From the sequence record MH051914: a stretch of DNA of 64,000 bases; one strand, given 5' to 3'. Made by a program: the position numbers and the translations under genes. The number at the start of each line of letters is the position of its first letter. Position 1 is the stretch's first letter. The notes under the pieces were generated by a model. The model ran no database searches and had not been told where the DNA came from. It worked only from the letters and a program-made list of their open reading frames with translations. Shown here piece after piece: positions 3,603 through 64,000 of the stretch. Source of the DNA: Enterobacteria phage vB_EcoM_IME338.

Positions 3603-4502
3603 ATGGCTAAAGCAGAACTTGATAAATACTACACACCTGACGAAGTAATAAGGGTGTGTGAAGATAAGCTACAAAAGGTCTTTAAAGGCTCTATTTCGTG
3701 CATTATAGACCCCTGTGCAGGTGACGGAAGATGGAAAGATTCTTTTAAGAGGGTTTGTCAAGATGTTGTGCTATACGACATCGAACCAGACTCTGAAGAT
3801 GTTAGTACAAGAGACTTCCTGAAAGATGACTTAGAGATTCCAGATAAACCTTTTGCGATTGTTACCAACCCTCCATTTGGTAAGGCAAATAGTCTGTCTA
3901 CAAAGTTCTTTAACAAGGCTGCTACAATGAATCCAGACTACATTTGCTTCTTAGTTCCCATTAACTTTGGGAAGAAGAATCTTAGCAGACTTAGCAGAGA
4001 GTACACCTGCATTGATGAAGTAGAACTACCTAACCTTCATTTTGAAAGGATTGATGGAGTTACCTACTCAGCAAAAGAATCATCACTACGCTGTAACTTC
4101 CAAATCTGGAAGAGACAAAAACGGACAGATAAAATTTGTAAGATTGTCCCTGTGATAGTTGATGGCGTAAGAGTTTATAAGCGTGAGAAATTCACACTAT
4201 ACAGGCCACCATGTCACAAGATTGATGGTAAAGAGCAGCCAGTAGGTGTTTTAGGTAAACTGGATGGAAAAGATTTGTTCACGATTATTACACATGGTCG
4301 TAAGGCTGGCACTGTGAAGGTTTTTGAACCAGATAAAGATAAGGTGTCAGTGAAACAGTTTATCGAACCACACGTAGAGGGTCTTTACTCAGCAATCAAA
4401 CAAGAATGGTTTAATGATTTGAGAGATGGTTTTGCACTGAGTCATGCAGGTTCTATCAACTCACAAGAAATTATAAATACTTTAGAAAAACACTTGCATT
4501 AA
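3603..4502 (+). CDS. N6-adenine DNA methyltransferase, gamma-class (TaqI/Eco57I-like), orphan
   Basis: motif X YYTPDEV, motif I DPCAGDG (SAM binding), motif IV TNPPFG in gamma-class order; no adjacent restriction enzyme. Confidence 0.75.
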   Translation: MAKAELDKYYTPDEVIRVCEDKLQKVFKGSISCIIDPCAGDGRWKDSFKRVCQDVVLYDIEPDSEDVSTRDFLKDDLEIPDKPFAIVTNPPFGKANSLSTKFFNKAATMNPDYICFLVPINFGKKNLSRLSREYTCIDEVELPNLHFERIDGVTYSAKESSLRCNFQIWKRQKRTDKICKIVPVIVDGVRVYKREKFTLYRPPCHKIDGKEQPVGVLGKLDGKDLFTIITHGRKAGTVKVFEPDKDKVSVKQFIEPHVEGLYSAIKQEWFNDLRDGFALSHAGSINSQEIINTLEKHLH

Positions 4503-26666: not shown

Positions 26667-26743
26667 CTCTGTTTAGCTCAGCTTGGTAGAGCGTTCCGTT
26701 TGGGGCGGTAAGGCCGGAGGTTCAAGTCCTCCAACAGAGACCA
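26667..26743 (+). tRNA. tRNA-Pro (anticodon TGG)
   Basis: manual cloverleaf: acceptor CTCTGTT/AACAGAG, anticodon loop TTTGGGG, T-arm GGAGG-TTCAAGT-CCTCC, CCA encoded. Confidence 0.75.
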
Positions 26744-26750
26744 AATTAAT

Positions 26751-26828
26751 GTTCCAGTAGACAAAATGGTATAGTCACCACTCTTTCAAAGTGGATATTT
26801 GAGGGTTCAAATCCCTTCTGGAACGCCA
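26751..26828 (+). tRNA. tRNA-Glu (anticodon TTC)
   Basis: acceptor GTTCCAG/CTGGAAC, anticodon arm CCACT-CTTTCAA-AGTGG, CCA encoded. Confidence 0.75.
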
Positions 26829-26835
26829 GTTTTGA

Positions 26836-26908
26836 CAGAAGACCAATTACAGCAAACTTAATCTTATTCATCTGACACGAAATCGGACAAAGAAGAGATT
26901 TGGTCTGG
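26836..26908 (+). ncRNA. Y-RNA-like structured element E1
   Basis: 5' CAGAAGACCAATTACAGCAA ... 3' TTGGTCTGG; terminal helix AGACCAA/TTGGTCT. Confidence 0.4.
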
Positions 26909-26919
26909 TCATTAAGAAT

Positions 26920-26996
26920 TGCGGGTATAGAGAAAGGGCGTCTCACATGTCTCATTAGCATGGTATCGGCAGGTTCGACTCCTGCACCCGCCTCCA
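26920..26996 (+). tRNA. tRNA-Met-like (anticodon CAT), atypical acceptor/D junction
   Basis: D-arm GAGA/TCTC, anticodon arm CATGT-CTCATTA-GCATG, T-arm GCAGG-TTCGACT-CCTGC; acceptor pairs only with a 3-nt connector or 1-72 mismatch. Confidence 0.5.
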
Positions 26997-27002
26997 ATTT
27001 TG

Positions 27003-27062
27003 CAGAAGACCGTATGCAGCAATAAACTACTTTTTGCGGATAAAAGAAAAAACACGGTCTGG
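27003..27062 (+). ncRNA. Y-RNA-like structured element E2
   Basis: 5' CAGAAGACCGTATGCAGCAA ... 3' ACGGTCTGG; helix AGACCGT/ACGGTCT (compensatory vs E1). Confidence 0.4.
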
Positions 27063-27073
27063 CAACCTATTAA

Positions 27074-27147
27074 GGTTAGGAAGCACATGAGGTATGTGCG
27101 GTCGCCTGTTAAGCGAATGGCACAGGGTTCGAATCCCTGACTAACCG
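27074..27147 (+). tRNA. tRNA-Asn (anticodon GTT)
   Basis: D-arm GCAC/GTGC, anticodon loop CTGTTAA, T-arm CAGGG-TTCGAAT-CCCTG. Confidence 0.75.
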
Positions 27148-27159
27148 CAAAATTTAAAT

Positions 27160-27247
27160 GTGTCGTTATCCCGTAGATGGTAGCGGTGGGGACTGTAAAT
27201 CCCTTGTCATTGAGACTCGGTAGGTTCGACTCCTACACGGCACACCA
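27160..27247 (+). tRNA. tRNA-Tyr (anticodon GTA), class II
   Basis: acceptor GTGTCGT/ACGGCAC, anticodon arm GGGGA-CTGTAAA-TCCCT, long variable arm, T-arm GTAGG-TTCGACT-CCTAC, CCA. Confidence 0.75.
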
Positions 27248-27308
27248 ATTTTGAGAGGGCTATTTAGCCCCTCCCTTAAAGGGTTCTTACGAGTATTCTT
27301 TAAAGGAG

Positions 27309-27382
27309 CAGAAGACCAAATACAGCAAGTTATTTAAAATTTCAAGCCAATTTAATTTTGAAAAATTTAAAACTTGGTCTGG
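27309..27382 (+). ncRNA. Y-RNA-like structured element E3
   Basis: 5' CAGAAGACCAAATACAGCAA ... 3' TTGGTCTGG. Confidence 0.4.
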
Positions 27383-27395
27383 CTCAACAAATTTA

Positions 27396-27526
27396 CAGAA
27401 AACCGTTTACAGCAAAACTTAAACAATCTATTTCTCGGTAAAGAAAAGGCGAAGGTTCGATTCCTTCACTCGGCAGATGTCGAGTTGGTGTAATGGTAGC
27501 ACTTAAGATGATAAACAACGGTCTGG
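27396..27526 (+). ncRNA. YrlA-like RNA candidate: terminal helix enclosing a permuted tRNA-like module
   Basis: ends CAGAAAACCGTTTACAGCAA / AACGGTCTGG; internal T-arm GAAGG-TTCGATT-CCTTC, closed acceptor-like hairpin ACTCGGC-AGAT-GTCGAGT, D-arm GTGT-AATGGTA-GCAC. Confidence 0.5.
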
Positions 27527-27529
27527 TAA

Positions 27530-27669
27530 TTATCTTTGTAGATAAGTTATTAAGCTTACCTGTGAGTATGCGACCACAAAGGGTGAAAGGGTAAATTCTA
27601 GATTTAAACCCAACAAGGCACATCGCTACAGACCTTAAGCAAGTCTGGGTAGCTTATCTACAAAGATAA
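27530..27669 (+). ncRNA. structured RNA candidate with perfect 17-bp terminal stem
   Basis: TTATCTTTGTAGATAAG pairs with CTTATCTACAAAGATAA about 105 nt away; inner bulged hairpin CTACAGAC/GTCTGGGTAG. Confidence 0.4.
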
Positions 27670-27675
27670 TTTAAT

Positions 27676-27751
27676 GGAAGTGTAGCAGAATGGTGATGCG
27701 GCAGACTTTTAATCTGACAGGCGATGGGTTCGAATCCCTCCACTTCTACCA
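27676..27751 (+). tRNA. tRNA-Lys (anticodon TTT)
   Basis: acceptor GGAAGTG/CACTTCT, anticodon loop CTTTTAA, T-loop TTCGAAT; T-stem only 3 G-C pairs. Confidence 0.6.
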
Positions 27752-27755
27752 ATAT

Positions 27756-27832
27756 GGTTCAGTCGCAGATAAGGTAATGCAGGGGTCTCATAAGCCCTAT
27801 GAATGTGGGTTCGATTCCCATCTGAACCTCCA
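27756..27832 (+). tRNA. tRNA-Met (anticodon CAT; initiator/elongator/Ile2 not resolved)
   Basis: acceptor GGTTCAG/CTGAACC, anticodon arm GGGGT-CTCATAA-GCCCT, T-arm GTGGG-TTCGATT-CCCAT. Confidence 0.7.
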
Positions 27833-27834
27833 AT

Positions 27835-27910
27835 GCTGTGAAAGCACATATGGATGTGCATTCGGCTGATAACCGAAAGGCAGAAGGTTCGAATCCTTCT
27901 CACAGTACCA
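27835..27910 (+). tRNA. tRNA-Ile (anticodon GAT)
   Basis: canonical: D GCAC/GTGC, anticodon arm TTCGG-CTGATAA-CCGAA, T-arm GAAGG-TTCGAAT-CCTTC, CCA. Confidence 0.85.
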
Positions 27911-27925
27911 ATTTCAATAAAGTTG

Positions 27926-27954
27926 TTGACATTGATGTGTGACTACTTTATAGT
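27926..27954 (+). promoter_or_regulatory. internal sigma70-like promoter within tRNA region
   Basis: TTGACA-N17-TATAGT. Confidence 0.55.
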
Positions 27955-28157
27955 AACCTTAGTTTTCGTTGCGTAGCGTCTATTTTGCAAATCTAAAATA
28001 AATGCAAACGACAATGTTTTTCTGGCAGTAGCTTGATAGGCTAAACACCAGTGAGGTCTTCCAATCCCTCATCAAAGAATTTGGCGTACTCGCCCACGGT
28101 ATGATTAATAAGGTGGGCATCTTTAAGGGCTTTCTAAGAGAGTCTTTAAAGATTAAT

Positions 28158-28234
28158 GCACCCTTAGTTCAACTGGACAGAACAAATGACTTCTAATCAT
28201 TAGGTTACAGGTTCGAATCCTGTAGGGTGTGCCA
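28158..28234 (+). tRNA. tRNA-Arg (anticodon TCT)
   Basis: D GTTC/GAAC, anticodon arm AATGA-CTTCTAA-TCATT, T-arm ACAGG-TTCGAAT-CCTGT, CCA. Confidence 0.8.
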
Positions 28235-28376
28235 AATAGTTAGCAGATTGCTTAGACGACCTTATCGGGTCTCCGTGTAAGGAGGTGGTCTGTATCTCAT
28301 GTTTTCCAGAACATGTAAATAATCTGAGAAGGGGCTTTACAGTGTTGTGAAAATACGGTAAGCTTCGAATTATAGT

Positions 28377-28459
28377 GTGGGACGATGTTAAGACTCTAAG
28401 GCATGAGCAACGGCTTCCAACACCGTTTCAAAGGGGTTCAACTCCTCCGTCCCATGCCA
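28377..28459 (+). tRNA. tRNA-Trp-like (anticodon CCA) with 7-nt insertion between acceptor stem and D-arm
   Basis: acceptor GTGGGAC/GTCCCAT + CCA; D ACTC-TAAGGCAT-GAGC; anticodon arm AACGG(C)-TTCCAAC-(A)CCGTT with 31-39 mismatch; T-loop TTCAACT; 9-nt connector instead of 2. Confidence 0.45.
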
Positions 28460-28472
28460 AAGTCTTATTAGG

Positions 28473-28560
28473 GGTAGGTAGCGGCTAATGGTAGCCAAAC
28501 TGTCTTGAAAACAGTTGCCACTGTAGAGATACGGTGAGGGTTCGACTCCTTTACTTACCG
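28473..28560 (+). tRNA. tRNA-Ser (anticodon TGA), class II
   Basis: acceptor GGTAGGT/ACTTACC, anticodon arm ACTGT-CTTGAAA-ACAGT, variable arm stem CTGTA/TACGG, T-loop TTCGACT. Confidence 0.7.
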
Positions 28561-28817
28561 CCTAATAAGATTTAAAGCCAAGCTTCATTCGGATGTTGCT
28601 TTGGTATCCCTCGTGTATTGTCGTACACCCTGATAAAGCACCTAGTAGGTGTCACGGAGAAGAGATAATATCAAGCTCTCCAAAGGTTCTAGTCACCGGA
28701 TTGAACAAGACTATGCAAAGACCAATTTAGGTCTTTTTAGAGGGCTTCTAAGGTTATTACAGCTTGTTGTGGAACCTTGTTGCTTAGGTTCTTAGAAGTT
28801 CTCTAAAAAGATTTAAT

Positions 28818-28894
28818 GCACCTATAGCCCAACTGGTAGAGGCAGCAGACTTAGAATCTGCTCAGTGTGAGTTCGAATCTCTCTAGGTGTACCA
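28818..28894 (+). tRNA. tRNA with anticodon TAG (Leu by anticodon) but short variable arm
   Basis: acceptor GCACCTA/TAGGTGT, anticodon arm GCAGA-CTTAGAA-TCTGC, T-loop TTCGAAT, A73, CCA. Confidence 0.6.
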
Positions 28895-28901
28895 AATTAA
28901 T

Positions 28902-28977
28902 GCAGGTGTAGCAAAATGGTTATGCGGCTGACTCTTAATCAGTAAGACGATGGGTTCAATTCCCTCCACCTGTACCA
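28902..28977 (+). tRNA. tRNA-Lys (anticodon CTT)
   Basis: paralog of Lys-TTT gene; anticodon loop CTCTTAA; CCA. Confidence 0.6.
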
Positions 28978-28983
28978 AACATT

Positions 28984-29059
28984 GGGGTCATAGTTTATAT
29001 GGTTAAAATTCGAGTTTTGCAAACTTGGGAACTGAGTTCAATTCTCAGTGACTCCACCA
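28984..29059 (+). tRNA. tRNA-Ala (anticodon TGC)
   Basis: acceptor GGGGTCA/TGACTCC with G3-U70 identity pair, anticodon loop TTTGCAA, T-arm CTGAG-TTCAATT-CTCAG, CCA. Confidence 0.8.
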
Positions 29060-29065
29060 ATTAGT

Positions 29066-29140
29066 GCATCCATAGTTTAAACGGGAAAATTACAGTCTTC
29101 CAAACTGAGGTTGAGGGTTCGATTCCCTCTGGATGCTCCA
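29066..29140 (+). tRNA. tRNA-Gly (anticodon TCC)
   Basis: acceptor GCATCCA/TGGATGC, anticodon loop CTTCCAA, T-arm GAGGG-TTCGATT-CCCTC, CCA. Confidence 0.75.
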
Positions 29141-29147
29141 AATTAAT

Positions 29148-29224
29148 GCTGCTTTCGTATAATTGGCTATTACACATCCCTTGTAAGGATGGAAATGCAG
29201 GTTCGAGTCCTGTGAGCAGCACCA
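29148..29224 (+). tRNA. tRNA-Thr (anticodon TGT)
   Basis: anticodon arm CATCC-CTTGTAA-GGATG, T-arm GCAGG-TTCGAGT-CCTGT, CCA. Confidence 0.75.
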
Positions 29225-29227
29225 ATT

Positions 29228-29319
29228 CAGAGGTCAAGTGAAAGACCGCTGGTGTCAACTGAAGACCGTAACAAATTCCACGGAGTTGAGTTAGCGGCAC
29301 AACTTCAGACCTCTTTCAT
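29228..29319 (+). ncRNA. structured element E6 with two GAAGACC-type motifs
   Basis: CAGAGGTC...GACCTCTTTCAT terminal pairing; internal GTGAAAGACCGC and CTGAAGACCGTAACAAA. Confidence 0.3.
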
Positions 29320-29394
29320 ACTCGCTTAGTTTATATGGTAAAACACCACCCTTACAAGATGAAGAAAAAGGTTCAAGTCCTTTAGTGAGTACCA
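29320..29394 (+). tRNA. tRNA-Val-like (anticodon TAC) with weak anticodon stem; possible pseudo-tRNA
   Basis: good acceptor, D-arm GTTT/AAAC, T-arm AAAGG-TTCAAGT-CCTTT; anticodon loop CTTACAA but stem CCACC/GATGA has 3 of 5 pairs. Confidence 0.45.
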
Positions 29395-29395
29395 T

Positions 29396-29474
29396 GTTCC
29401 AGTATCCCAATTGGCAGAGAGGCCAGACTTAAAATCTGTGTTATGTATCGGTTCGAATCCGATATGGAGTACCA
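29396..29474 (+). tRNA. tRNA-Leu-like (anticodon TAA), atypical 5' half
   Basis: T-arm ATCGG-TTCGAAT-CCGAT, anticodon loop CTTAAAA, acceptor GTTCCAG/ATGGAGT with two G-U pairs; D-arm pairing ambiguous. Confidence 0.45.
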
Positions 29475-29479
29475 AATTT

Positions 29480-29555
29480 AGCGGTATAGCATAACTGGCA
29501 ATGCAACAGTCTCTGAAGCTGTCTTATTAAGGTTCAAATCCTTATGCCGCTGCCA
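29480..29555 (+). tRNA. tRNA-Gln (anticodon CTG)
   Basis: D GCAT/ATGC, anticodon arm ACAGT-CTCTGAA-GCTGT, T-arm TAAGG-TTCAAAT-CCTTA, CCA. Confidence 0.75.
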
Positions 29556-29586
29556 CTTCTAAGGATTCTTACGAGAGTCCTTAAAT

Positions 29587-29662
29587 GTGGCCTTATCATA
29601 AATGGTAATAACCCATGCTGTGAACATGGTCTATACGGGTTCAAATCCCGTAGGTCACCCCA
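29587..29662 (+). tRNA. tRNA-His (anticodon GTG)
   Basis: anticodon arm CCATG-CTGTGAA-CATGG, T-arm ACGGG-TTCAAAT-CCCGT, C73, CCA; no encoded G-1. Confidence 0.7.
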
Positions 29663-29667
29663 ATTTA

Positions 29668-29744
29668 TAGTCCAAGTAGCTTATATGGTTAAAGCGCGTG
29701 TCTGAAAAACATGAGAAGAGGGTTCAAATCCCACTGGACTACCA
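29668..29744 (+). tRNA. tRNA-Phe-like (anticodon GAA), 4-nt acceptor/D connector
   Basis: perfect acceptor TAGTCCA/TGGACTA, D GCTT/AAGC, anticodon arm CGTGT-CTGAAAA-ACATG, T-loop TTCAAAT. Confidence 0.55.
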
Positions 29745-29760
29745 ATTTCAAAGGTGCTTA

Positions 29761-30495
29761 ATGAAAGAGATGACAGAACAAGGTAAGGAGATTTTTAATC
29801 TCTTAAAAACCGGTAGAGGGTTTTCTAATCCCCTTATTACTGGTGCAGCAGTTCTCGGTGGAACCGTAGCTGCCTCTACATCACTTATAAGCTCTATTAG
29901 CTCTGTAACAGACCCTACAATAAAGGATAAACTTGTTGCTGCTGGACTGACAACAGTTCTGCTTAACAGCTTTACAACGAGCCTGACAAGCACTACATCA
30001 ACCACTAAGACATTGACAGACTACGGTCAAAAGTCTATTGATGAGTTTTCATCACGTATGCAGGTAGCAAAAGGCTATTCTAATGTTATGGGTGCAGCAG
30101 GAGAGCAAGTTGGTTGTACACCATTTAGTGGTATTATGGGTGTTGCTACAGAGTATGGTCAAAAAGCTATTGACACAATTAACAGTGCACTAGATGGTGT
30201 TAATGATGTATTAAGCGACTTACAAGATGCTATTGATAAAGGTCTTGATACTATTTCTGATTTAGCTAACCAAGCTGTTAGCAAGATTAATGAAGGTATC
30301 TCAAAGATTACAGCTTATGCAGATGAAGTTGTGCAGATGATTGAAGAAGAAGCTGCCCTTATTGCAGAGTACCTTAAAACGAATATCAATGGGTTCTTAG
30401 CAGGTATCTTACCAGACTGGTTTGACGATGCTTGTAAAACTGGTGTAATTGATACTATTGCAACACCAGAAATGAAGAACGCATTACAGAAATAA
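29761..30495 (+). CDS. hypothetical Ser/Thr/Ala-rich protein embedded in tRNA array
   Basis: start reset to ATG 29761 with AAAGGTG RBS; track start 29698 would overlap tRNA-Phe-like gene. Confidence 0.5.
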   Translation: MKEMTEQGKEIFNLLKTGRGFSNPLITGAAVLGGTVAASTSLISSISSVTDPTIKDKLVAAGLTTVLLNSFTTSLTSTTSTTKTLTDYGQKSIDEFSSRMQVAKGYSNVMGAAGEQVGCTPFSGIMGVATEYGQKAIDTINSALDGVNDVLSDLQDAIDKGLDTISDLANQAVSKINEGISKITAYADEVVQMIEEEAALIAEYLKTNINGFLAGILPDWFDDACKTGVIDTIATPEMKNALQK

Positions 30496-30496
30496 T

Positions 30497-30589
30497 GGAA
30501 GATTAACCCTAAAAGGTAAGGGAGCAGTTTGCTAAACTGCCAGTAGCTGAGAAATCGGTGTACCAGTTCAAGTCTGGTATCTTCCTCCA
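30497..30589 (+). tRNA. tRNA-Ser (anticodon GCT), class II
   Basis: acceptor GGAAGAT/ATCTTCC, anticodon arm GCAGT-TTGCTAA-ACTGC, long variable arm, T-arm ACCAG-TTCAAGT-CTGGT, CCA. Confidence 0.75.
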
Positions 30590-30593
30590 ATTT

Positions 30594-30669
30594 GAATCCG
30601 TGACAGAAATGGATATGTGCCTGTCTGCAAAACAGGTTTATAAGGGTTCGAGTCCCTTCGGATTCTCCA
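30594..30669 (+). tRNA. tRNA-Cys (anticodon GCA)
   Basis: acceptor GAATCCG/CGGATTC, anticodon arm CCTGT-CTGCAAA-ACAGG, T-arm AAGGG-TTCGAGT-CCCTT, CCA. Confidence 0.8.
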
Positions 30670-60470: not shown

Positions 60471-60521
60471 ATAACCTCCTATATAAGATATTGTATAATA
60501 TACTCTTCCATGAGCACCTTG

Positions 60522-61054
60522 TCAAGATAGTTTTGCAAACTCTCCGTGGAGTTTTATAGTGGCTTCACAGTAAGCTTTATGGGCTTCTTCAGGTGTGTCA
60601 TGATAACCTAAAAACATCTTCTTACCTCTATAACTTATCTGTGCGACCCACCTACCAGACTTCTTCTTAAGACTTACACCCTTGTACCCAGATTTATTGG
60701 TGACTGGCTTACCTTTATTCCAAGCACTTTGAAAGTCATCTGCTTCCCTTAAGTTTACAATCCTGTTGTCAAGTGAGTCTCCGTTGATATGGTCAATGAT
60801 ACTTTTGGCATCTTGCCATACACGTAAAGCCATGCGAGTCTGTGTGCTTTATGTGCTTTCTTGTCAAAATAGATACTAATCTGTTTATGACCACTTGAAT
60901 CAGTCTGGATATTACCTGCCACCTTTCCTGCATAATTACTGTTAAAAACACTAACAGCTCTTGATTTACCTTCTCTACGAAGCCAAGTAAAGACCCCTGT
61001 TTCGGGGTCATAGCGTAGCAGCTCCTTTAAACGTTTTTGTAAAATAAAATCCAT
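60522..61054 (-). pseudogene. HNH homing endonuclease with AP2-like DNA-binding domain, split by a frameshift
   Basis: two overlapping ORFs in different frames: N-terminal part [10 protein letters not shown]...AHRLAW (60755-61054) and HNH motif [17 protein letters not shown] + AP2-like C-terminus (60522-60833). Confidence 0.55.
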
Positions 61055-61057
61055 TAA

Positions 61058-61615
61058 TCAATGTACCTCATACCAGCTCTTACCAACCTTTGCTGTACCA
61101 GTTACAAGTGTTTCTTTCCTCAAGCCTAAGTTTTTTGAAGCTTGCCCATACATCCAGTCAGCAATTGCTTTCATATCATGTGTCATACCCTCTGGGCATT
61201 CCCAACTATTTTCGTCGTGATATGCCAGAAGTAACCTTGCTCCGATAGCTGGTTTTCGAGCATTCAGTTTTGTCAGGCCATCTTCACAGGCTTTTCTTGC
61301 TGCTAGGTTGATGGCTTCATTCTGAATCTGTGCTTCCGAACTCATCAGGAGGTAGTTCAGTAGTTTATGTGGAGATTTGCACCATATCCATGCTCCAGCG
61401 ACCCTGATATAACCACCTTTAGCAATTGAAGAGTTCTTCCCAAAAACCTCTTCCAGAGCCTTTTTAGACGCCTTAAAATCAGCTTCTAAGCTATCAAGTA
61501 ACTTCTTAATCTTTGGTAAACGCATATAGTAAGTTTGTTTAGTCAATGCACCTTCTTCCGTAGATGATGCCTTGATAGTTTTTGCAAACTTCTCATCGCC
61601 AGCCCCGAACAATAC
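61058..61615 (-). CDS. DNA polymerase family A, exon 2 (C-terminal part)
   Basis: starts inside motif B (LFGAGDEK) and contains motif C LLLAYHDE; no ATG in frame (first track codon is TTG). Confidence 0.7.
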   Translation of the reverse strand, partial: VLFGAGDEKFAKTIKASSTEEGALTKQTYYMRLPKIKKLLDSLEADFKASKKALEEVFGKNSSIAKGGYIRVAGAWIWCKSPHKLLNYLLMSSEAQIQNEAINLAARKACEDGLTKLNARKPAIGARLLLAYHDENSWECPEGMTHDMKAIADWMYGQASKNLGLRKETLVTGTAKVGKSWYEVH

Positions 61616-61886
61616 ATCTGGTCAATACACTCGCAAGGTGTACCAGTTCTCTTATGAACTTCTCCGCATTTCTACGGAGTGTCGGACTATATCACGTAGC
61701 AGTGATGCTACCGTTGCACTTGGGGATGGTCATTAGCTTACCACCCTACTCTACTCAGTTCATACGTTAAGTATGCTTTTCGATAGTCTCTGAACGTTCC
61801 TCTTAAGAGGCTTCGCTGCTGATTACCATATCTTTCCAGACTTAGGCTTCCAGCAATTCACAACGTTTTACATGCGCCACTGACGC
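61616..61886 (-). other. group I intron interrupting the DNA polymerase gene (boundaries within a few nt)
   Basis: minus-strand RNA carries group I core: P4-like GAAUUGCUGGAAGCC, UAUGGUAAUCAGCAG, P7 strands GUUCAGAGACUA and GAUAUAGUCCGAC; exon 1 frame hits a stop inside. Confidence 0.75.
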
Positions 61887-64000
61887 ATAAATGCCATTTT
61901 TGGCTTTCTTACGACCTTTTGTAATCTCGTGAAGAAGCTCCTCATCCTGCGTCTCCCTACAACGAACAATATCATCTTCCTTGTTTAGACCGAAGTAAAT
62001 ACTATTCAGTGTATGTGCATCAGTACCTGTGTAGACTTCGTAGAGGTCATTCTCAGCATCATAACGAAGATACTTATCAGTTTCTGGATTGAGGTACTTA
62101 TCGAGATGCTTGCAATAGTATCTTCCATCCTCTTGCTTGGTAAATTCTACTGACTCTTTACCTTCAGTTACCGCTTTGGTGAAGTCTTTATCACCCATAA
62201 AGTTACACAGTAAAACAAGCTGTGCAGAGTTCTGGTCAACTGAAACGATATTAGTCCCTTCCTCGCAAATCCACACCTCCCTCATAGGTGCTCCATAGAC
62301 AGCAGCACCAGACGGTACGTTTACAATACCATATTGTGTCATACGTCCAGTTGAAGTACCAAACACCATTGCACCAGCACTAAGGCGACCATCAGGACGA
62401 ATCTGGTTCAACCAACCTTTTTCATCATCCTTTGAGTTCTCAATAGTTCTGCGTCGGTGCATCAAGGTATAGTATTTCGCAATCTTCTGTCCAAGCTCAC
62501 CTTCAATCGTATCATAAGATGATTCAGTAAGTTTTGGTGAAGTACGGATTAAGCAAGGCTCAAGCAAATCTGTGTACTTCTTCACAGACCAGTTATGCTC
62601 AATGTACTGGACACCTTCGTGTTCAACATAACTCAAACCACACCGTTCCACCATCTCATCCCATTTAGGATGCTTTGTAATCATCTTTTTGTTGTCTTTG
62701 AAGCGACAAACCTTAACAGGACGACCATCAGAGTCTTTCTTATAGTTCCAGTCATCTGGAATCCAACCAACTGATTTCAAGTAGTCTTTAACAACTGCTA
62801 CCTGAGTCATACGAGAAACTTCGAACTCAATTGGTGTATATGGTGCATCAATCAAACCTGTGTAGCGACTTGACTCAAGTTCAAAGTGGTTAACAACATG
62901 ACTGTTATAGTACTTCACAGTCTTAACTGTTTTTACTGGCTTCCAGTCTTTGCATTTCTTACCAATCTTTGCATTCAACTCATTGCAAATTGCACGAGCA
63001 TCCTTCATTGCTACAAAGCCTTCCTTGTACTCTTCACCAGTTACCGAGTTGGTTGGTGTATAGCAATTCCGCTTTTCAATGTTAAAAATCTTTGTAGTTG
63101 GCTTACCAAATGGCTTGATTTCATATGTCTGCATCTCACCGTTACGTACCTGTTGACGATACTTTGTCTTAGGGTACTTGGTAATTCTCTTCAGTCCATC
63201 TGCATGACCAAATGCTTCAACATACTCATTCCAAGCTTTTGCAAATTCTTCTCCAGTGACTTTACCTTTGGTCTTAATAGTTGGAGGAAGATGTGGTTCA
63301 ACTTCTGAAGCAAGCTCGTTAGTCAACTTGTCAAGTTCCTTTACATGGAACTCCATAAGCTCTTTATCAGCTTTCCAACCATTGATAGCCTGTTGACTCA
63401 TCCAGAAAGATGTTTCTTTAGCTCGCATGTAGGTTTCATAGGTGTCTACGCCACACTTCTTTAGCTTCAGATATTCATTATCCAATGCACGTTTAGTTTT
63501 GGCGTTAATACGGATATCTTCCACAACACGAGTGAAGATTTCTGCATTCCACACACCCCAATGTTCAATCTCTGGTTTACGGACACCAACACGAGCACCC
63601 CATGCTGCCAAGCCATGAGCACCTTTATAGCCTTTTGGAGTTGGTCTATCCATCCACTGAACACGAGACTGGATAAGAGAATCCTGAAAGAAATTACTCC
63701 ACGGCTTACACTTTGGATTATCAAAGTTCCACAAATCGGGTGCAATGTGATTGAAAACCCACCAGTCATAACCGAGACCGTTATGGATGCAAAGACGTTT
63801 TGCCTTTAACGCAAATTCAACACCTTCACGTAAACCACCCTTAATGTACTTGGTATACTTGTGACCGAGGATAGGTTCATCTGTAAAGACCCATACAGGT
63901 GGCTCTTCATCGTCAGATTTATAGTCTGCGAAAGCCATTACGTGCACTTTAGTGAACTCAAGGAGTAAACCATCAGTTTCTGTATCACCAACTAAATGTA
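61887..64000 (-). CDS. DNA polymerase family A, exon 1 (N-terminal part, runs off window end)
   Basis: Exo I motif DTETDGL in the frame extending past 63947 to the window edge; motif A VSVDQNSAQL; ends inside motif B RKKAKNGIY. Confidence 0.75.

Follow-up and report, generated by a model that had tools for sequence, protein, structure and literature searches.

A probable recent pseudogene of a free-standing HNH homing endonuclease beside the intron-bearing DNA polymerase gene of Enterobacteria phage vB_EcoM_IME338

Introduction

Is the gene that directly follows the DNA polymerase gene of Enterobacteria phage vB_EcoM_IME338 read in an unusual way, is it broken, or does it only appear to be broken in the sequence record? 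We examined this locus in a stretch of 64,000 nucleotides (nt) of record MH051914, to which we refer as the window. At positions 60522-61054 of the window, two overlapping open reading frames (ORFs) in different frames together spell out the parts of an HNH homing endonuclease. An earlier note on this DNA offered three alternatives, namely a decaying endonuclease gene, programmed frameshifting, and a sequencing error, and by placing the gene next to an intron-bearing polymerase it implied a connection between endonuclease and intron.

The kind of element is already known: the window holds a disrupted copy of an annotated HNH gene family. Sporadic inactivation of homing endonuclease genes is well established (PMC1654191, PMC3984707), and both the homing cycle and intronless homing have been described (PMC3984707, PMC2988022).

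Results

The following features, all on the minus strand, define the disrupted gene.

60522..61054, minus strand: disrupted gene, very probably for a free-standing HNH_3 + AP2 homing endonuclease (allele A); 533 nt here, 534 nt in intact relatives
60755..61054, minus strand: ORF1, 99 amino acids (aa); an N-terminal module and the AHRLAW segment (the initial half of the HNH_3 profile), then 15 out-of-frame codons after the deletion, ending at TAA
60522..60833, minus strand: ORF2, 103 aa; codons 1-10 are in a frame other than that of the true protein, followed by the DH...N...N core and AP2 from about 60802 downward
60802..60803, minus strand: site of a 1-nt deletion, placed by alignment with relatives, by all 41 public records and by the indel list
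60744..60850, minus strand: HNH_3 profile region, interrupted by the deletion; residues 69-104 of the repaired protein, the coordinates being computed from residue numbers
60543..60692, minus strand: AP2-type DNA-binding domain (PF00847); residues 122-171 of the repaired protein

The two ORFs are present as the earlier note described them; they overlap by 79 nt, and the frame of ORF2 is -1 relative to that of ORF1. When the frames are joined at the break, the result is a protein of 177 aa that matches Pfam HNH_3 (PF13392) at 51.5 bits (cut-off 24.8), Pfam AP2 (PF00847) at 43.8 bits (cut-off 33.3) and PHROG 99, 'HNH endonuclease', at E = 3e-72; the AP2 tail aligns with the solved plant AP2/ERF domains 7wq5 (phmmer E = 9e-7) and 5wx9. 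ORF2 by itself matches HNH_3 at 27.7 bits (profile positions 19-38) and AP2 at 45.4 bits, and ORF1 by itself has no Pfam match. The homing-endonuclease architecture that had been read from the translations (an N-terminal module, an HNH motif and an AP2-like tail) is thus borne out by the domain matches of the joined protein, and all of the peptides quoted in its support are there. The D-H...N...N core is present, with D88, H89, N97 and N101 invariant over six divergent alleles; in HNH enzymes, these residues of the beta-beta-alpha-metal motif have a catalytic role. The domain is not, however, encoded in one uninterrupted frame, being divided between the two frames by the 1-nt deletion.

The polymerase stop codon TGA occupies 61060..61058 and the endonuclease ATG 61054..61052, so that the gene begins at the fourth base past the stop, just as the earlier note had it, with the sequence GAGGT ten bases upstream of the ATG. 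The gene lies inside neither an intron nor an intein but between the polymerase stop (61058) and a promoter at 60525. From its location and domains, we consider it very probable that this gene is one copy of a free-standing homing endonuclease, with an N-terminal DNA-contact module, an HNH core and a C-terminal AP2 domain, in a slot common to the Ounavirinae.

Alignment with four relatives places the shift at 60802/60803, inside the interval 60750-60850 in which it had been suspected. The coding strand reads CCAAAAGTATC in the window as opposed to CCAAAAGGTATC in the relatives; the lost base is one G of the Gly85 codon GGT, and the plus strand carries a single C at 60802 where the relatives have CC. 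An 81-nt query across the break matched 41 public records, every one of which spans 82 nt and therefore carries the extra base (41/41). A look-up of the exact truncated ORF1 product found no record, and exact-DNA scans of IMG/VR and of JGI metagenome contigs did not find the deletion allele; a control scan of the same collections for the intact allele found two contigs. Since all 41 records have the extra base, the ORF1 product is unrecorded and the deletion allele is missing from the metagenome contigs, the deletion appears to be private to the MH051914 window.

The single-base loss falls just upstream of the DH...N...N core, and because it precedes the core, translation from the true start would stop after 99 residues, yielding a product with neither the nuclease core nor the AP2 domain. 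Inspection of the sequence ahead of the ORF2 ATG revealed no Shine-Dalgarno sequence, and ORF2 is without the 84 N-terminal residues, which include the family-invariant Y15, D16, P17, G20, V21, G43, A46, G47, H71, W75 and G80. Since neither ORF offers both halves of the protein, ORF1 being without core and AP2 and ORF2 without a ribosome-binding site and those 84 conserved residues, the window copy should be non-functional. We put the probability at roughly 85% that it is a non-functional, very recent pseudogene of a dispensable selfish gene.

Several points weigh against this reading. ORF2 keeps the whole DH-N-N core and the AP2 domain, so that rare internal initiation, or a chance -1 slip in the A4 run, could formally leave some residual activity. 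The copy shows hardly any damage beyond the deletion: it is 98.5% identical in nucleotide sequence to the intact SLAM_phiST56 gene (XJW10041.1), with three private amino-acid changes (H14R, K135R and A166T) and no further stops, so that any decay must be very recent. A sequencing or assembly error of one base could account for the lesion, and both the cleavage target and the homing activity of the intact enzyme are predicted properties.

The relatives bear on what kind of loss this would be. The window belongs to a Felixounavirus. The region is 95-99% identical to that of dozens of Felixounavirus genomes (Felix O1-like myoviruses of Salmonella, Escherichia and Shigella), and the best public relatives of the window are about 94-95% identical over 24 kb. 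Among them, the genes of SLAM_phiST56 (XJW10041.1), BPS17W1 (AUM59149.1), HY02 (AIK67904.1) and Z31 (QHB48937.1, 'HNH endonuclease') share with the window copy their position 4 nt past the polymerase stop, a nucleotide identity of 95-98.5%, and the HNH_3 and AP2 domains; they differ from it in being uninterrupted 534-nt ORFs, whereas the window copy is one base short and lies in two frames. Nineteen public copies were read directly. Sixteen are intact 534-nt ORFs, and the other three are broken by two other, independent lesions: RPN213 and D1-2 both have one G too many in a G4 run close to codon 19, within the 3' arm of a GACCCC/GGGGTC hairpin, and the MBP4696116 copy has a nonsense change from TGG to TGA. 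The remaining public records give full-length, single-frame matches (tblastn). The window thus adds a third kind to what are three independent lesions among 20 copies (the 19 public ones and its own). Variable sites fall 7, 8 and 28 times at the first, second and third codon positions, and the mean ratio of nonsynonymous to synonymous substitution rates (dN/dS) among copies, with the MBP4696116 values left out, is about 0.24; because of this pattern, we take the protein to be constrained in the population, with sporadic, independent knock-outs. The suggestion of a decaying endonuclease accordingly has to be divided: for this copy a real, recent inactivation is favored, but the family, judged from these sequences, is not decaying, as most of its copies (16 of 19) are intact and under purifying selection.

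The same comparison helps in deciding between a mutation and an error. It could be argued that the phage really has an intact 534-nt gene and that GG was read as G beside the A4 run: what is missing is one base of a dinucleotide that adjoins a homopolymer, the deletion is unique when set against the 41 public records and was not seen in the viral and metagenome collections scanned, and the remainder of the ORF, at the identity given above, has no other defect. A run of two nucleotides, however, is a poor substrate for homopolymer errors, and the same gene has been lost elsewhere by different lesions in about 3 of 19 copies, including one by a base substitution, a change common to no class of sequencing artefact. 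Real loss of the gene is thus frequent. We also scanned the whole window for frame breaks in real ORFs of at least 100 aa by comparison with 67 kb of phage L27. Of three candidates, the HNH gene is the sole real ORF with a break, and no other real gene has an uncompensated frameshift; the other two candidates lie within a tRNA cluster, where the long ORFs of L27 have been drawn too far, across tRNA genes; neither is a real coding frameshift. The other 1-nt indels in the conserved coding half are compensating pairs inside divergent patches. With the HNH gene as the only real ORF with a frame break, the window assembly looks clean. We infer that the lesion is probably a biological mutation; a sequencing or assembly error is a distinctly weaker, though appreciable, possibility.

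The tRNA cluster itself consists of 22 genes at 26667-30669 on the plus strand, with several 1-nt indels relative to phage L27, and the 316-aa coding sequence annotated in L27 upstream of the terminase gene appears to be over-extended across tRNA genes.

If the deletion is real, the cell might still make the whole enzyme by programmed -1 ribosomal frameshifting, or by transcriptional slippage, on CCAAAAG, which would provide a regulated, low level of full-length endonuclease. The direction of the needed shift is -1; the tRNA-Lys on AAA could re-pair perfectly one base back within the A4 run, and the product would read ...PKSIIDH... where the intact protein reads ...PKGIIDH..., one residue apart. 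Homing endonucleases, moreover, are often made at very low levels. But conservation of the shift is lacking: at the break, each of the 41 homologues stays in frame. Read in the zero frame, G CCA AAA G does not fit the slippery pattern X XXY YYZ; only the Lys tRNA could re-pair, as GCC offers no pairing for the CCA in the P site. Downstream of the break, 86 nt have a minimum free energy of -6.9 kcal/mol compared with a mean of -12.9 for shuffled sequences, and 200 of 200 shuffles fold at least as well. As for slippage in transcription, it requires runs longer than four A residues, and four is all that the site has. The non-conservation, the lack of a canonical heptamer and the lack of downstream RNA structure rule out frameshifting or slippage, leaving it a vanishingly small chance. 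Of the three alternatives offered earlier, it is the one that falls; decay and error both remain, the former being preferred.

The slot that this probable pseudogene occupies extends from the polymerase stop to the next promoter, and two further features belong to it.

60497..60525, minus strand: strong sigma-70-like promoter, TTGACA-17-TATATT, in which 11 of 12 positions match the consensus; it overlaps the HNH stop codon
60992..61009, minus strand: hairpin GACCCC-GAAACA-GGGGTC in the 5' part of the HNH ORF, encoding DPETGV (DPxxGV); a terminator-like match, followed by TT

Close relatives are polymorphic here, both in the presence of a gene and in its allele. Allele A, of 534 nt, is found in Z31, HY02 and BPS17W1 as well as (less one base) in this window; allele B, of 504 nt, in Felix O1 (p176), momo and tootiki; and allele C, of 513 nt, in phiWec174. 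The slot is empty in JH2, and OR850874 is likewise without the gene, from which it follows that the HNH gene is dispensable. Alleles A, B and C all encode HNH_3 and AP2 domains and have the same final 24 residues, although B and C are only about 50% identical to A as proteins. The sequence of the HNH-less JH2 becomes homologous to the window again at exactly 60525, in the -35 box of the promoter, which therefore marks the right edge of the HNH cassette; the overlap with the promoter may account for the identity of the last 24 codons in all HNH alleles. Felix O1 ORF95, or Felix01p176 (NP_944955.1), and the phiWec174 allele resemble the window copy in their slot, their HNH_3 and AP2 domains, their C-terminal 24 residues and their 5' hairpin, and differ from it in the protein identity just given. 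The Felix O1 allele differs further in that it has 19 nt in common with the 3' end of the polymerase gene, and the 3' segment of its polymerase is 61-85% identical to that of the window. Felix O1 has been reported to have six HNH endonuclease genes and no introns (PMC3185647), in agreement with the intron-less polymerase and the allele-B gene that we find there, and a passage of PMC5318435, citing Magnani et al. 2004, puts AP2 domains on record in the Felix O1 HNH endonucleases. Related genes (59-85% identity) lie directly 3' of the polymerase in Suspvirus, Mooglevirus and Kolesnikvirus.

The hairpin has a history of its own. A 41-nt segment containing it folds with -16.3 kcal/mol (z = -3.75), and its stems are identical, nucleotide for nucleotide, in every Ounavirinae polymerase-downstream allele examined, although the loops differ, the proteins are only 50-84% identical to that of allele A, and synonymous sites are otherwise heavily diverged between these alleles. 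Because the stems are identical despite the synonymous divergence, the hairpin would seem to be under selection as nucleic acid. In distant homologues with the same DPxxGV peptide motif, other codons are used and no perfect stem was found. To judge by its fold and conservation, the hairpin may be an expression attenuator or terminator for the endonuclease after the polymerase gene.

The conservation of the position in four genera (Felixounavirus, Suspvirus, Mooglevirus and Kolesnikvirus), with homologues directly 3' of the polymerase in each, would also be explained if the gene had been domesticated, that is, if the HNH-AP2 protein helped the phage through regulation by AP2 or through exclusion of competitors; the frameshift would then be the loss of a useful function. 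The dN/dS of about 0.24 is compatible with this, and a passage of PMC11620839 describes an intron endonuclease that aids phage competition elsewhere. However, an actively homing selfish gene is also expected to show purifying selection, and JH2-type phages do without any gene in the slot, other phages have widely differing alleles there, and inactivated copies are carried by viable isolates. We regard domestication as quite improbable and retain the reading of a selfish gene.

What the intact gene does is best approached through the polymerase gene next to it.

61058..61614, minus strand: DNA polymerase exon 2, including the stop codon; A-type haplotype from about 61527 downward, co-segregating with allele A
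61615..61882, minus strand: ORF-less group I intron of 268 nt in polymerase motif B, its ends set by the intron-less alleles of Z31, HY02, CRP22, ULIM9 and bumzen
61883..64000, minus strand: DNA polymerase exon 1, which runs past the end of the window; relatives annotate 2184 nt

By sliding identity, the polymerase 3' segment together with the HNH gene is 97-100% identical among allele-A genomes compared with 61-85% to genomes with allele B or an empty slot, with which the polymerase gene outside this segment mostly shares about 85-99% identity. The boundary is sharp, the divergence starting near 61527, about 88 nt 3' of the intron insertion site. Exon 2 is accordingly a mosaic: its first 88 nt or so (61527-61614), encoding polymerase motif B, are nearly invariant in all HNH-bearing relatives, and the remaining 470 nt or so (61058-61527) are the divergent, A-type part.

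That the adjoining polymerase bears an intron, as the earlier note had it, is confirmed by a match to Rfam RF00028 at 62.2 bits (gathering score 50) and by the exact ends that the intron-less alleles provide. The Rfam match itself, 61662..61945, is offset by about 50-60 nt at each end, and the boundaries from the intron-less alleles were used instead. The last base of exon 1 is T at 61883 (a U before the 5' splice site), and the last base of the intron is G at 61615. Excision of 61882..61615 restores the frame, giving ...KNGIYA|LLFGAGDEKF..., the same peptide as in the intron-less alleles, and self-splicing is predicted. The intron is present in 107 public records. In JH2 (3687-4169 of its locus, L008) and OR850874.1 (469-951 of its locus, L021), the same intron, there 802 nt long, carries an ORF of 160 aa for an Endonuclease_7 protein (PF02945); in both of these inspected genomes no free-standing HNH gene lies 3' of the polymerase.

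Endonuclease allele and intron occur in all four combinations: allele A with the intron; allele A without it (Z31, HY02, CRP22, ULIM9, bumzen and others); allele B with it (tootiki); and allele B without it (Felix O1 and momo). The intron is found in 29 of the 38 distinct allele-A genomes and is missing from the other 9. Around the insertion site (61595-61905, minus strand), about 10 silent substitutions in 12 codons separate the intron-bearing alleles (GGCATTTATGCGT|TATTGTTCGGGGCTGGCGAT) from the intron-less ones (GGCATCTACGCCCTGTTATTTGGAGCCGGAGAC), and this block tracks the intron irrespective of the HNH allele; it resembles a short tract, of co-conversion or immunity, that belongs to the intron. 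The insertion-site sequence of intron-less allele-A phages is 99-100% identical over 161 nt to that of phages without allele A.

Discussion

We suspect that the window preserves the remains of a homing endonuclease that, where it is intact, acts on the very gene beside which it lies. Because a linked polymerase haplotype is what endonuclease-driven co-conversion of flanks should leave behind, the intact enzyme is expected to target the polymerase 3' region of phages that do not carry allele A. It would most likely cut or nick this part of the gene in co-infecting phages without allele A, and during recombinational repair the endonuclease gene would then be copied along with the polymerase 3' segment next to it.

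The intron invites a second interpretation, in which homing is collaborative or in trans: the HNH enzyme would mobilize the ORF-less intron by cutting intron-less polymerase genes at or near the insertion site, and its loss in the window would leave the intron stranded. There are precedents in F-CphI and the psbA intron and in MobE of T4 and the nrdB intron (PMC2790892, PMC3984707). The intron lies 561 nt from the HNH start codon, within typical co-conversion distance (PMC2790892, PMC3984707); the allele-A haplotype block starts only about 88 nt 3' of the insertion site, beside the invariant motif-B stretch; most allele-A genomes (29/38) bear the intron; and elsewhere, where the free-standing HNH gene is absent, the same intron holds its own Endonuclease_7 ORF. 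The locus resembles both MobE, with the defunct I-TevIII of the nrdB intron, and F-CphI, with psbA, in having a free-standing endonuclease beside an essential gene that contains a nuclease-less group I intron at co-conversion distance. It differs from them in that intron and HNH allele assort independently and the flank signature tracks the intron only. The existence of all four combinations means that endonuclease and intron are not co-inherited, the block of silent substitutions at the insertion site tracks the intron only, and, were the insertion site the target, intron-less allele-A phages would cut themselves, their site being the same as in phages without allele A. We therefore find a strict partnership of HNH gene and intron unsupported, either by co-occurrence or by the flanks of the insertion site, and the link implied by the earlier note correspondingly weak; collaborative homing is improbable as an account of this locus. 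Given the distance of 561 nt, occasional co-conversion of the intron along with the cassette is plausible.

The reading that we prefer, a selfish endonuclease gene recently inactivated in one phage, finds its closest parallel in the degenerate homing endonuclease genes of the homing cycle (the Goddard-Burt model; PMC1654191, PMC3984707, PMC2988022), in which inactivating mutations likewise arise in single lineages. In contrast to the degeneration of that model, most copies here are intact and constrained, which makes the loss sporadic rather than population-wide.

A broader picture, less likely than not, can also be drawn. The 3' end of the Ounavirinae polymerase gene may be an arena in which several mobile elements converge on motif B, each HNH allele being tied to its own 'immune', recoded C-terminal segment of the polymerase, and the common hairpin throttling expression of the alleles downstream of the polymerase gene.

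For annotation, the consequence is that the two ORFs should be entered as a single, disrupted pseudogene of an HNH endonuclease, or else compared once more with the reads, and not as two hypothetical proteins or as a case of recoding. In a larger context, the locus is a compact and well-sampled natural system for learning how free-standing homing endonucleases reshuffle an essential gene. It offers dozens of isolates in which the slot is empty or filled by one of three endonuclease alleles, and an intron that in some cases has its own nuclease. It could also reveal whether free-standing endonucleases interact with a neighboring intron, a matter that extends known biology rather than introducing a new kind of element.

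Two minor observations concern the neighborhood and the public records. In the DNA ligase gene, which elsewhere exceeds 90% identity, the segment 59340-59640 (minus strand) forms a second mosaic patch, at 72-79% identity with some relatives but 95-100% with others, suggesting a further boundary of recombination or homing. OR850874.1, whose polymerase locus is of the JH2 type, without this HNH gene, encodes the identical ligase protein. Felixounavirus sequence (polymerase, HNH or intron, 95-100% identical) also turns up in three records with other host labels, MG065664 and MG065668 (Campylobacter phages A132 and A126) and GU169904 (Staphylococcus phage SA1), where it probably reflects contamination or mislabelling.

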